Assembly: GCA_030248215.1 (NCBI GenBank) | Contig: JASANG010001128.1 | Location: 248,001-312,000 of the forward strand | Reading direction: 5' to 3' | DNA: 64,000 nucleotides | Source: Enoplolaimus lenunculus | Lineage: Eukaryota | Shown: positions 36,909 through 52,855 of the stretch, one piece after another | How positions within the stretch are numbered: position 1 is the first letter of the stretch | Layout of the letters: every line of letters starts with the position of its first letter | Made by a program: the position numbers and the translations under genes | Notes under the pieces: generated by a model | Databases searched by the model: none | Told to the model about the DNA's origin: nothing | Seen by the model: only the letters and a program-made list of their open reading frames with translations

Positions 36909-37665
36909 ATGGATTCATCAGAGCTCAAGCTAGCTAAACCACCCTTTGCACCACTGGAACGCTATGTCGTCAGTGGTGATGACAACTCTACCGTGCTTGT
37001 GTTATTTAACAGCGGTTGGAGTTGTCTGTCAAATTTTCGGGCATCACCAATGAAAATCAATGGCGTAAAGTACCGAAGTGTGCAGCAGTACCTAGAAGCG
37101 CAAAAGGCATTGTTTATTGGGCGGGCTGATTTGTACAACGTAATAATACAAACGTTCTCTCCCAGAAAATGTTTCGATATAATGCAAACAGTAAAAGACG
37201 TTGTTCCTGAAGCGTGGAACAAAAAAGTACCAACCTATTTAAAAATTGCGCTGACAGCAAAATTTCAGCAGCATGCCGAGATGCGGAAAACTTTGTTAGA
37301 CACCAAACAAGCGCTACTAGTGTTCGCAACCTCTTTCGACGATTATCTTGGCAACGGATTAGATATGATGGATCCGCAATCTGCGTTTCCAAAAAAGTAA
37401 GTAAAATTTACACAAAGCGGATTATCAAAAATGCGAAAAACTTACTGCGCGCCTGTATGTGTTGCTGTAAATTCATTGTTTGCATGAACGCAATTCCCTG
37501 ATTTACTAATGTTAACGTTTGTTTCAGTATCCTGGGCACAATCTGCTTGGCGTGCTTCTAATGGAACTACGAGAGCAATTTGTGAAAAAGACAGTCAAGG
37601 TCGAAGATGACAAATCTGTCAGACCAGAACAAGCTGAGTTGCCATCAGATTCAGAATTCGTATAA
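36909..37665 (+). CDS. NADAR (YbiA/DUF1768) family protein, two exons (36909-37396, 37528-37665); the splice is 1 nt out of phase, so possibly a pseudogene or a homopolymer error
   Basis: LSNF..PMKINGVKYRSVQQY..QKALF, AKFQQH..MRKTLLDT and DDYLGNGL, then after GTAAGT...TTTCAG the conserved tail YPGHNLLGVLLMELR. Confidence 0.8.
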
Positions 37666-37730
37666 AATATAAATGCTGCACAAAATCAAACTCATTGTTT
37701 TTAATATGTTATTTATTGTGCTTAATACAA

Positions 37731-38684
37731 ATGAAAGTTTCGAATAAATTAATTAGTATACTTGAGTCTATTTATTACAATCCTAGTTTGCCAGCATCGT
37801 TCACGAACGCGAACAAGCTCTGGCTATCCGCACGAAAGCAGTTACCGTTGCTTAAGTTTTCTGAAGTAAAACATTGGCTAGCAGCGCAAGTTGTGCACCA
37901 GTTGCACAAAAGAAAATCTCGTCGCCATGCCACTACAACGATTAAAGTTGAGCGACCTAATCAACAATGGGACGTAGACTTGGTGTTTGTTCGAAAAGCT
38001 AAGCGTTACAATAATAATTACCAGTATATCTTAATTACAGTAGATCTTTTCGGTAGAAAAGCGTTTGTTGAACCGTTAAAAAATAAGTATTCAAAAACTG
38101 TTGCCGATGCTTTCGTAACGATCCTAAAGCGTTCGGCCGAGGTTCCTAAAGTTATTCGCTCAGATTACGGAACAGAATTCAAAGCCACATTTGAAGCGCT
38201 TCTAAAGTCACGTGACATCAAACATTTCTATGCTAACAATGCATACAAAGCTAACTATGCAGAGCGCTTTATTAGAACTTTACGCGGCAAAATTTTAAAG
38301 TATCTAACTCACACCAGTAAACTGCGTTATATTGATGCTCTGCAAAAATTAGTTCAATCATACAACGACACCGTGCACCGCAGCATAGGAACAACGCTTA
38401 ACGAAGCTGCTAAATGTAAGCTTCCTAAAATTAAGCCTAGTAAAACTGTACATAACACCAAACCTAAGTTTGTCTTCGAGTTGGGAGATTATGTAAGAAT
38501 TGCATTGGGCAAAGGTACATTCAAAAAATCAACAGAACAGTCCGATGAATTGTATGAAGTTGTTCAACGCCGAATGGAATATCCGCCAACCTACAGACTG
38601 CAGGATATGCTCGGAGAACCTCTTACAGGTGCTTATTATGCAGCTGAGCTAAAAAAGGTTCCAAGTGTCATCAAAACAAAATAA
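37731..38684 (+). CDS. Maverick/Polinton-type retroviral-like (rve) integrase, intact ORF
   Basis: N-terminal IYYNP...WL..Q..HQLH, catalytic WDVDL, RSDYGTEF and AERFIRTL (D-D-E), YNDTVHRSIG, FELGDYVRI and YRLQD..GE...G.YY..EL. Confidence 0.9.
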   Translation: MKVSNKLISILESIYYNPSLPASFTNANKLWLSARKQLPLLKFSEVKHWLAAQVVHQLHKRKSRRHATTTIKVERPNQQWDVDLVFVRKAKRYNNNYQYILITVDLFGRKAFVEPLKNKYSKTVADAFVTILKRSAEVPKVIRSDYGTEFKATFEALLKSRDIKHFYANNAYKANYAERFIRTLRGKILKYLTHTSKLRYIDALQKLVQSYNDTVHRSIGTTLNEAAKCKLPKIKPSKTVHNTKPKFVFELGDYVRIALGKGTFKKSTEQSDELYEVVQRRMEYPPTYRLQDMLGEPLTGAYYAAELKKVPSVIKTK

Positions 38685-38803
38685 TGTTTGCGTGAGTCAG
38701 CATGTGACTAACGTAAACCTATAAAAGGTGGCGACCATACGCAAAACCATCATTTTATTGTTTTCTGGAAAACAAACTGTGTGTGTATTTATCAACTAAT
38801 GAA

Positions 38804-49644: not shown

Positions 49645-50069
49645 TTGGCCAACTGGCCCAAAAAACGATTAACGTTACTGCACATCCATAATTTTACATC
49701 TAACAGATAATGCTCTGCCAGGAATTTCAAAATTACTGCTTAATTCGGTTATTATAACCCCACAATTCTTTTCTGAAGATATAATTATTTGAAATCTTTG
49801 ACCAAAGATACTAGTAAAATCATTTCTAGCTACTTCTCACACTATTAAAGTTTCAGTTAATACTATTACATGAAAACTTTTAACTGCATTATAAACTTCA
49901 TTCATTTTTACCTTACTGTTAATTAATCCCTTGCACATTTAATGTAGTCAGTGTAGGTCTACTAGTCTGCATCGGAAATCGCACCTTAACCTACTCCATT
50001 CTTTGACGTTTAACTGCATGGGAAGGTGCGTACACTGTTTCGCTAATTGAGTTTCCGTACATCATACAT

Positions 50070-51552
50070 CGCCTTAAATGTGTCAGTTAATCTAGAAATA
50101 AATTTCGTCACTTCCAATACTATCGATCATCAGCTTAAGAACCATGTGTTTTAAGACGTATTCCCCATTGACATCCTTCGGATTACATTCAACCAATCTA
50201 GTACCACTGGTGTCAAACAATTTCCGTTTTAGCTCCACATTGTGAGAAAATTTAGCAAAATTTGCTTTCCATAACCACATCCACGCTTTTGCGTTCCAAA
50301 TGTCTTTTGATTCTGGCCACACGCTTTGCTGAGCAACACGCTTTACGTCAACTGGGTCCTTCATTGCGTATAGCCGTTCGCCTAGCGACTCCTCTCCCAT
50401 ATACAAAGCCCTTGATACAAACAAATAATGCTGTACTTACCCATTTCCGACCGTCTAACACAAACTCACACTGATAATGATTTGAGAATTCGCTGTTTCG
50501 AGTAAAAAATTGTGTATAACGGTTGTATTGGGTGTCCAGTTGCTGATCATTACTCAATGATGGCATCAGAATAGGACAGGTTTCGTATTTTGATATATCT
50601 TCGCTGTCCCTATAGATTAAATGTTCGTTTGGGTTACTCGTTTCTACAGCATTTTCTGGCAACATTAACCCTGCTTCGACTTGAGCTACCATATCATTAG
50701 ACTCACATTGCCCATGTTCGACAGTTGCACCTGCTGTATCTTGCGTCAGCTTATTATTTAGCATATTCTCTACATTTATATCATTATTTTCATCACAAGC
50801 AAAGCCGCCTGCCGGCTCAACTATGCCACCAGCCACTTCGGCATGCGAACGAGGTGTTGTTGTTTTTGATACGTAGAAACTTACGTCGATAGAATAATAT
50901 TACAGTCCAAGGCTCGATGACCGAATTTCCAGCACCTGTGACAACAAATTTGGCTTCCCCTCCACCAAATTTGTATTTTGCGCCTTAACTATTTTCACTT
51001 GATTTATACCACATAAATCCTGAAAATTCCTTGACTGGTTCAACTTTAACTGAACGTGACCCATTGAAAATAGGCGATTGTGGATATTTGCAAATTCGAA
51101 TATCCGATACTAATTTACACCCATTGTCCTCTAGTGATTTTTGCAAAATTAAATTACTGTCCAATAAAGGTATCCCATGTATATAAATCACCCGGGTTTT
51201 TGGCCTTGGAATACCGCTTTCCGGATGCGGAAACTAGTTCAAACATCATATTGTCTATCACTAACTTTACATTAATCGCATTTGTCCGTTGTTCATTTGA
51301 AAAATATACCAGCCGTAACATACCCCGTGTAAAGTCCGCTGCATACGGAAGCAAATCCGAAGAATTGTCAGCTGCTAACTTTGCCATTATAGCGTTCTTA
51401 GTCCAGTGTTCCATGTCAGATCCGCGTAAATTTGCAAAGGCCGTGCGTGCTATCGTTTCAGACTGCTTTGTCGTTGTCATAAACTGTTGACTTGTAATAC
51501 CGTTGTCCACACTGTCTGTGTCCGCTGCTGCGTCCTCCTCTTACTCATCCAT
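50070..51552 (-). pseudogene. LINE ORF1-NADAR fusion, copy 4 (extra 2-nt deletion near 51235)
   Basis: Near-identical repeat (track ORFs 51154-51510, 50985-51191, 50348-50836, 50092-50424). Confidence 0.78.
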
Positions 51553-51974
51553 TTGGCCAACTGGCCCGGAAAAACGATTAACGTTACTGCACATCCATAA
51601 TTTTACATCTAACAGATAAAGCTCTGCCAGGAATTTCAAAATTACTGCTTAATTCGGTTATTATAACCCCACAATCCTTTTCCGAAGATATAATTATTTG
51701 AAATCTTTGACCAAAGATACTAGTAAAATTATTTCTAGCTACTTCTCACACTATTAAAGTTTCAGTTAATACTATTACATGAAAACTTTTAACTGCATTA
51801 TAAACTTCATTCATTTTTACCTTACTATTAATCCCTTGCACATTTAATGTAGTCAGTGTAGGTCTACTAGTCTGCATCGGAAATCGCACCTTAACCTACT
51901 CCATTCTTTGACGTTTAACTGCATGGGAAGGTGCGTACACTGTTTCGCTAATTGAGTTTCCGTACATCATACAT

Positions 51975-52855
51975 CGCCTTAAATGTGTCAGTTAATCTAG
52001 AAATAAATTTCGTCACTTCCAATACTATCGATCATCAGCTTAAGAACCATGTGTTTTAAGACGTATTCCCCATTGACATCCTTCGGATTACATTCAACCA
52101 ATCTAGTACCACTAGTGTCAAACAATTTCTGTTTTAGCTCCACATTGTGAGAGAATTTCGCAAAATTTGCTTTCCACAACCACATCCACGCTTTTGTGTT
52201 CCAAATGTCTTTTGATTCTGGCCACACGCTTTGCTGAGCAACACGCTTTACGTCAACTGGGTCTTTCATTGCGTATAACCGTTCGCCTAGCGACTCCTCT
52301 TCCATATACAAAACCCTTGATACAAACAAATAATGCTATACTTACCCATTTCCAACCGTCTAACACAAACTCACACTGATAATGATTTGAGAATTCGTTG
52401 TTTCGAGTAAAAAATTGTGTATAACGATTGTATTGGGTGTCCAGTTGCTGATCATTACTCAATGATGGCATCAGAATAGGACAGATTTCGTATTTTGATA
52501 TATCTTCGCTGTCCCTATAGATTAAATGTTCGTTTGGGTTACTCGTTTCTACAGCATTTTCTGGCAACAACAACCCTGCTTCGACTTGAGCTACCATATC
52601 ATTAGACTCACATTGCCCATGTTCGACAGTTGCACCTGCTGTATCTTGCGTCAGCTTATTATTTAGCATATTCTCTACATTTATATCATTATTTTCATCA
52701 TAAGCAAAGCCGCCTGCCGGCTCAATTATGCCACCAGCCACTTCGGCATGCGAACGAGGTGTTGTTGTTTTTTGATACGTAGAAACTTACGTCGATAGTA
52801 TAATATTACAGTCCAAGGCTCGATGACCGAATTTCCAGCATCTGTGACAACAATG
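51975..52855 (-). pseudogene. LINE ORF1-NADAR fusion, copy 5 (5'-truncated at the zinc knuckle)
   Basis: Homology to the unit stops at TGTGACAACAA (~52852). Confidence 0.75.

Follow-up and report, generated by a model that had tools for sequence, protein, structure and literature searches.

Why should two unrelated mobile elements lying side by side each carry a NADAR domain? This question is raised by a 64,000-nucleotide stretch of Enoplolaimus lenunculus DNA (assembly GCA_030248215.1, contig JASANG010001128.1, positions 248,001 to 312,000 of the forward strand), hereafter the window, whose own coordinates are used throughout. A stand-alone domain, here termed NADAR-A, lies in the remnant of a Maverick, a DNA virus-like transposon, and another, NADAR-B, lies at the end of open reading frame 1 (ORF1) in a tandem array of fragments of a long interspersed nuclear element (LINE). 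A preliminary description of the locus proposed that convergent capture pointed to a shared selective pressure, possibly a host defense based on ADP-ribosylation of nucleic acids. Our analysis favors another explanation, to which we assign a probability of about 0.62. The two domains would have been acquired separately, NADAR-A as a non-cutting Maverick cargo and NADAR-B as a hydrolase, probably once active, tethered to ORF1 of an L1/Tx1-like LINE, and the two elements would have been juxtaposed by rearrangement.

That both are real NADAR domains, as initially described, was borne out. On the Pfam profile NADAR (PF08719, cut-off 35.1), NADAR-A (36909-37397, plus strand) reached 71.5 bits and NADAR-B, in two pieces, 57.2 and 45.1 bits; the fold was checked for NADAR-A. 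Proteins were sought in reading frames of at least 75 amino acids across the window, and 24, 5 and 78 frames entered three Pfam scans.

The NADAR-A Gene and Its Link to the Maverick Integrase

The NADAR-A gene appears to comprise two exons on the plus strand. Exon 1 (36909-37396), which was delimited by the Pfam score, the fold, the residue map and the phase, ends at the donor of a putative 131-nt GT-AG intron (37397-37527) with a TTTCAG acceptor, behind which the NADAR profile picks up again (E 4e-4 in one scan and 0.048 in another). Exon 2 (37528-37665), recognized by this profile match and by its splice site, encodes the C-terminal helix of the domain, with the terminal GxNxLG motif, and ends 65 bases upstream of the integrase. 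The latter is an open frame of the rve type (37731-38684, plus strand; Pfam rve 48.5 bits, cut-off 32.6). Since exon 1 measures 488 nt up to the donor and is out of phase with exon 2, the NADAR-A copy in the window is broken.

Contigs of three runs were mapped to positions 34500-46000. Summed contig depth, which is not equivalent to copy number, reached 9-50 in the left flank, 144-698 across NADAR-A, 157-742 across the integrase and 60-945 in the capsid region, so that NADAR-A was similar to the integrase and about 6-30 times the left flank. Several related Maverick copies were evident from contigs 88-99% identical and from the raised depth in the three runs. In all three, contigs of about 88% identity (66-88 differences in 543-798 bases) bridged NADAR-A and the start of the integrase, and therefore the link between the two genes is older than about 12% divergence. 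As these diverged copies retain the linkage, NADAR-A is likely Maverick cargo, and the earlier assignment of a stand-alone NADAR to the Maverick holds both here and in the contigs of the other copies. In addition, four of the eight closest relatives of NADAR-A (among the best 150 of 2033 matches) lose homology at the position of the intron, with a Val (GTN) codon coming next in three of them, and this loss suggests that NADAR-A comes from an old spliced lineage.

A Remodeled Pocket in the NADAR-A Clade

The homologue search with NADAR-A covered 1.84 billion representatives and gave the 2033 matches at E ≤0.001, the best 150 of which were used. An AlphaFold model of NADAR-A with 22 relatives reached a predicted local distance difference test (pLDDT) value of 91. 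Its sole two matches in PDB below E 0.001 were the Phytophthora nicotianae NADAR (8BAU) and E. coli YbiA (2B3W), with Foldseek template modeling (TM) scores of 0.77 and 0.66, respectively. Mapping onto the 8BAU numbering revealed that the equivalents of K50, W89 and D130 are retained, and that E125 is replaced by Phe (Phe139), E43 by Gln (Gln59), G78 by Met, R79 by Gln and W133 by Leu. The hydrolases of the YbiA subfamily are marked by a Glu at E125 in the last strand and a Glu at E43, and NADAR-A has neither.

NADAR-A falls in a group of nine members (FastTree support 97; Shimodaira-Hasegawa approximate likelihood-ratio test, SH-aLRT, 90 for seven of the eight members sampled), all of which carry Phe or Tyr at the E125 site. 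Gln occupies the E43 site in 6/9 and Arg is found at the R79 site in 0/9. Glu at the E125 site was likewise absent from all 29 members of a hand-picked wider group around this clade, whereas 110 of the 116 Glu-type domains have Glu at E43 and 97 have Trp at W133. Judging from these alignments, Phe/Tyr in place of the catalytic Glu is a trait of the whole NADAR-A clade and not of one copy.

Activity was lost in the E. coli C7 NADAR with D171A/N and E88Q (PMC11543638) and in SCO5665 with E167D/Q (PMC12945103). Because the clade has replaced the catalytic Glu and mostly has Gln at the second acid, and such changes abolished the tested enzymes, NADAR-A is probably not a guanine-ADP-ribose eraser or another hydrolase of known kind. 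The idea that the elements reverse ADP-ribosylation is weakened for the Maverick copy, both catalytic acids being replaced in its clade. Even ADP-ribose binding by NADAR-A is uncertain, since the ligand contacts G78-R79 and W133 are also replaced, and sequestration of the modification, the other role initially proposed, appears doubtful for this domain on the same grounds.

Among 30 homologue matches looked up, the single cluster present in NCBI was an abalone multi-NADAR protein. None of 23 relatives from the clade and the wider group was found in NCBI or UniRef; all came from Logan, ENA or JGI, in clusters of one or two members. Searches for the gene context of the Phe/Tyr clade gave either no match or distant ones, among them four loci at 29-31% identity, which lie on contigs of viral type measuring 112-282 kb. 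A word-based homologue search with NADAR-A found nothing, and the same type of search with alignment A1 found four proteins. An abalone protein of 4240 amino acids (P0001) contains seven stretches matching NADAR-A, with Tyr at the catalytic site in some of the domains. On a bacterial-looking metagenome contig (L005, 6936-8942, plus strand), an ankyrin-repeat protein ends in a degenerate NADAR of 24% identity.

The Tandem LINE Array and NADAR-B

The LINE fragments form an array on the minus strand (44150-52853), delineated by self-comparison and reading frames, of about 4.6 head-to-tail units of 1.9 kb that are 95.8-99.4% identical to one another. Along the minus strand the unit consists of an ORF1-like N-terminus, a CCHC knuckle, a linker, NADAR-B, the ORF1 stop and about 100 endonuclease-like codons of ORF2. 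The knuckle (C-x2-C-x4-H-x4-C) was read directly in 5/5 copies. Immediately past the ORF1 stop lie LNVxG and LxET, which we take to be APE endonuclease-type motifs of an ORF2 start; in PDB, the human L1 endonuclease was the sole match to this segment, a weak one (E 1.4). In every unit ORF2 breaks off after about 100 codons, both LINE ends are missing, and no reverse transcriptase, 3' tail or target duplication was found in the array. A word-based search with the ORF1 N-terminus, which covered longer proteins, returned no homologue.

NADAR-B is damaged in every one of its five copies, all on the minus strand: copy 1 (44350-44790) has a stop and two frameshifts and is alone in having the WGMG/GRNL end in frame, copies 2 (46300-46700) and 4 (50110-50520) have two frameshifts each, copy 3 (48200-48610) has frameshifts and a stop, and copy 5 (52015-52425), whose unit begins at the knuckle, has frameshifts. 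A sixth, more diverged fragment (52869-52968, minus strand) is 87-90% identical over about 100 nt. The fusion of ORF1 and NADAR-B can thus be read solely across breaks and forms a single open frame in 0 copies. Of the fusion as initially described, the position of the domain at the end of ORF1 in tandem units stands, but the fused gene itself is interrupted by frameshifts in every copy.

One frameshift, inside the domain, is common to all five copies, another, before the knuckle, to copies 1-4, and a third, near the end of the domain, to copies 2-5. Because the first of these is shared by all five, we infer that the array grew after the ORF1-NADAR gene had died. Hidden introns were rejected as the cause of the NADAR-B frameshift, the break falling inside a conserved motif and being too tight for an intron. 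As regards the residues, NADAR-B keeps E125, and in copy 1 also D130 and W133, with Gln at E43 and Arg at K50.

Toward its end (44161-44440), copy 1 is far more divergent from copies 2-5 than in the rest of the unit and does not have one of their frameshifts, which suggests that copy 1 is a recombinant with another family member. Summed depth over the LINE unit (44484-46000) compared with the flank was 249-601 against 14-22 in run X3, 52-70 against 9-11 in run X1 and 149-190 against 43-50 in run X2, hinting that the length of the array differs between samples.

A full-length U2 small nuclear RNA (snRNA) sequence (53076-53267, minus strand; Rfam RF00004, 161 bits, model positions 1-192) is located immediately upstream of the LINE remnants, in the same orientation, and could be part of an snRNA-LINE chimera or a neighboring gene. 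The bases just 3' of it form a short hairpin and partly mirror the U2 5' end. Keno and Utopia are LINE families that target U2; an insertion of this type is ruled out by the unbroken match over the whole model.

The Maverick Remnant and Its Junction With the LINE

Of the genes that mark a Maverick, an rve-type integrase and a double jelly-roll (DJR) major capsid protein are present. The major capsid protein gene (42984-44150, plus strand), which was identified by Atlas clusters, contains an internal stop and ends where the LINE array begins. The fragment matched F54H12.2-like and PF21738 DJR-like clusters at 0.96-0.97 and a capsid of nucleocytoplasmic large DNA viruses (NCLDV) at 0.94, with a recognition value of 2173, which is below the tool's line of 2300, and with the family named on 10-12% of the cluster members. 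Against PDB it gave a weak match to a coat protein (E 0.7), and no close viral contig was found for it.

Upstream of it, broken frames at 41581-42432 (plus strand) may derive from a Maverick minor capsid (penton) protein, judging from their reading frames and motifs; they gave no Pfam match above the cut-off and no clear PHROG match. A non-coding element of 2.2 kb (38987-41160), whose inverted ends measure 63 nt and which shows a 3-bp TTT duplication, is nested between these frames and the integrase; it was recognized from the inverted repeats and the contigs, and contigs from all three runs bypass it. The left end of the Maverick is masked by a high-copy insertion and its right end is cut.

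The capsid gene and the LINE each end prematurely at about position 44150, and to the right of the LINE array neither a remainder of the capsid gene nor any Maverick core gene was recognized among the Pfam-scanned reading frames of the window. A clean insertion of the LINE into the capsid gene was rejected, as no capsid remainder was recognized on the right side. Since both elements are cut at the joint and no capsid remainder was recognized on the far side, the joint is most likely a rearrangement breakpoint and not a primary insertion. The preliminary description had read the capture of NADARs by both elements at one locus as a sign of shared selective pressure; the adjacency, as the scar of a rearrangement, says little about selection and carries little weight in this respect.

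Probable Separate Capture of the Two Domains

NADAR-A and NADAR-B share 29.6% amino-acid identity over 125 amino acids, and their DNA shows no similarity (best match E 0.66), in line with the earlier statement that they have only core motifs in common. NADAR-A is nearer to outside proteins (up to 41%) than to NADAR-B (30%). A FastTree phylogeny of 188 domains, from which 26 near-duplicate isoform domains had been dropped, placed NADAR-A within the Phe/Tyr group and NADAR-B among the Glu-type domains, together with animal multi-NADAR proteins, with several starred branches in between; NADAR-B is a long branch from a dead copy, and its relatives are under-sampled in this tree because the homologues were gathered with NADAR-A as the query. 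A recent local duplication of one NADAR is ruled out by the absent DNA similarity. We consider separate capture likely. As to the independent capture claimed initially, the exclusion of a recent local duplication is upheld by the DNA comparison and by the unconstrained trees, in which the two domains stand apart, while strict independence is not, for reasons that follow.

Weighing the Explanations

According to the explanation that we favor, NADAR-A would derive from a eukaryotic lineage with spliced genes; the Maverick would have accommodated it in its cargo slot and retained it for a task other than catalysis, likely as a binder or scaffold that does not cut. NADAR-B, at the end of ORF1, would have ridden on the RNA particle of the LINE and probably acted as a hydrolase of nucleobase-linked ADP-ribose, by which the RNA of the element would have been protected or processed, as has been guessed for oyster Tx1. 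The LINE array would have expanded after the death of the LINE, and the adjacency of the two elements would be a matter of chance, produced by rearrangement in a repeat-rich region.

A number of points weigh against this account. Regarding the Maverick, no protein-primed DNA polymerase B, packaging ATPase or protease was found among the reading frames scanned, and the 25 longest of 215 inverted repeats included none that flanks the element as terminal inverted repeats with a 6-bp target duplication; since these genes and ends were not found, the Maverick is filed as a remnant and not as a complete member. The NADAR-A intron was inferred from the sequence alone. The three runs that revealed the linkage come from two samples of one study, possibly the source of the window itself, and the gap between summed depth and copy number adds to this. 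Moreover, the linkage to a Maverick was seen within the NADAR-A family itself. Regarding the LINE, ORF1, the knuckle and the endonuclease piece had no Pfam match, and the structure model of ORF1 (pLDDT 39) was unusable. NADAR-B too may be remodeled, decay and design being inseparable in dead copies. Finally, an IQ-TREE analysis of a 46-row subsample placed the two domains apart with no branch at 95 or above, and forcing them to be monophyletic cost 26.4 log-likelihood units. The approximately unbiased (AU) test did not reject this constraint (p-AU 0.137), and a strictly independent origin is therefore not established.

Among the rival explanations, one that we regard as unlikely holds that both NADARs would act on the transcripts of their own elements, in RNA processing or in the repair of ends, with no relation to an attack by the host. 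Such a role has been suggested for the NADARs of Tx1 and Gypsy elements (PMC12477816) and of RNA viruses (PMC9503650; bioRxiv 10.1101/2022.02.15.480533), and in nematodes the protein SNA-3 employs its three NADAR domains, one of them devoid of the catalytic set, in trans-splicing (PMC9303266). Against this explanation, NADARs are described as inactive on phosphate-end ADP-ribose (PMC11833690).

It is also rather doubtful that NADAR-A is simply a passenger, i.e., a host gene picked up once by a Maverick lineage and copied along without benefit to the element. The intron, the location in a variable cargo slot and the broken state of the copy in the window would all agree with such an origin, as would the occurrence of a multi-NADAR protein in an animal, the abalone. 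Against it, the absence of 23/23 relatives from NCBI and UniRef and their clusters of one or two members agree better with rapidly evolving genes of mobile elements or viruses than with a conserved family of the host, and the link between NADAR-A and the integrase has persisted over about 12% divergence.

The explanation put forward initially, namely that mobile DNA or RNA is tagged with ADP-ribose by the host and that the two elements acquired their NADARs to remove or soak up this tag, is possible but quite improbable, with no positive evidence for it in the window. In its favor, NADARs, a sponge enzyme included, strip guanine and cytidine ADP-ribose from DNA and RNA (PMC11543638; PMC12945103; PMC11833690), viral NADARs are widespread and have been proposed to act in counter-defense (PMC9503650), phage NADARs reportedly neutralize DarTG1 (PMC11825919), and NADAR is present in Gypsy and Tx1 elements (PMC12477816), to which a Maverick can now be added. 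At this locus, the retention of E125 in NADAR-B, and of D130 and W133 in its copy 1, would be compatible with it. However, the NADAR-A clade has neither the catalytic acid nor several of the ligand contacts, and the adjacency of the two elements is a breakpoint. Furthermore, none of the frames in the three scans matched an ADP-ribosyltransferase (ART/PARP) family of Pfam, although short exons could escape, in agreement with the earlier observation that no such gene is visible in the window.

Least probable, we believe, is the bolder proposal that animal Mavericks carry a spliced pseudo-NADAR lineage, with Phe/Tyr and a conserved S/N-G-W motif, that would bind ADP-ribosylated nucleic acid or ADP-ribose uncut and, together with the NADARs of LINEs, Gypsy elements and RNA viruses, would mark an undescribed invertebrate defense that ADP-ribosylates mobile DNA or RNA.

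Genomic Neighborhood

From left to right, the locus comprises a piggyBac-like transposase remnant (35714-35992, plus strand; Pfam DDE_Tnp_1_7, 32.3 bits), a short insertion at about 36280-36650 with contig depth in the thousands, which indicates very high copy, and then NADAR-A, the rve integrase, the nested 2.2-kb element, the minor-capsid-like frames, the major capsid gene and the LINE array. A sodium:neurotransmitter symporter gene (Pfam SNF) with two very long exons lies further to the left (18647-23460, plus strand), and to the right a pair of frames of 160 and 159 amino acids (58773-59761, plus strand) had no Pfam match and at most weak PHROG matches. TTAGGC, the nematode telomere repeat, occurs 78 times in the window against a shuffled mean of 27, an excess that points to a probable nematode source, and a family of repeats of about 200 bp based on TTAGGC arrays is dispersed in both orientations over many places within 2300-54500.

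Comparison With Known Systems

Earlier work had placed NADAR in phages, in giant and RNA viruses and in retrotransposons of two kinds, and the Maverick adds a DNA virus-like transposon. NADAR is also a third kind of gene in the Maverick cargo slot. The Phe/Tyr clade offers a test of whether conflicts with hosts have repeatedly converted NADAR folds into binders that do not cut. If it is true that such binders recognize an ADP-ribosylated substrate, they could serve as a probe for a host defense that nobody has shown; the co-location of the Maverick and LINE NADARs is by itself no evidence for one.

No report of NADAR in Mavericks was found in the literature, though supplements, Repbase and subscription journals could hold such an annotation. 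Neither PMC8502044 nor PMC11071296 nor the preprint of Widen et al. contains the word NADAR in its main text, and PMC10748475, searched for related words and not for NADAR itself, contains neither "ADP" nor "cargo". Papers mentioning both NADAR and "polinto" were discarded, as Nadar is a name there.

With respect to the cargo slot, Widen et al. described nematode Mavericks with an intron-bearing slot upstream of the integrase. The Maverick studied here resembles them in having an intron-containing gene in that region and differs in that this gene has a NADAR fold. PMC9503650 surveys viral NADARs, found in phages, giant viruses and RNA viruses of invertebrates, and proposes counter-defense, ideas that are also treated in bioRxiv 10.1101/2022.02.15.480533; the likeness is that of a NADAR on a virus-like element, and the main text of the survey does not mention polintons, adintoviruses or transposons. 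The toxin-antitoxin pair DarT1-NADAR shares the hydrolase fold, but here no transferase partner was found among the frames scanned, and the domains do not belong to the Asp-type BC4488 subfamily. Compared with 8BAU and YbiA, NADAR-A has the same fold and the equivalents of K50, W89 and D130 (PMC11543638), and differs by F, Q, M, Q and L at E125, E43, G78, R79 and W133, whereas NADAR-B differs by Q and R at E43 and K50.

The closest parallel to NADAR-B in architecture is found in the oyster Crassostrea gigas, where NADAR is reported in ORF1 of Tx1 LINEs, as well as in Pol of Ectocarpus Gypsy elements, with a suggested role in RNA processing (PMC12477816). As in the oyster, the domain is here inside ORF1 of a LINE, which is probably L1/Tx1-like. 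The present array differs in being a dead tandem fragment devoid of a reverse transcriptase, and it is likened to the oyster elements by architecture and not by sequence, membership in the Tx1 clade not being shown. What was already known is therefore the fusion of ORF1 and NADAR in a LINE (PMC12477816) and the idea of counter-defense (PMC9503650), and what is new is a NADAR as Maverick cargo and the remodeled clade to which it belongs.

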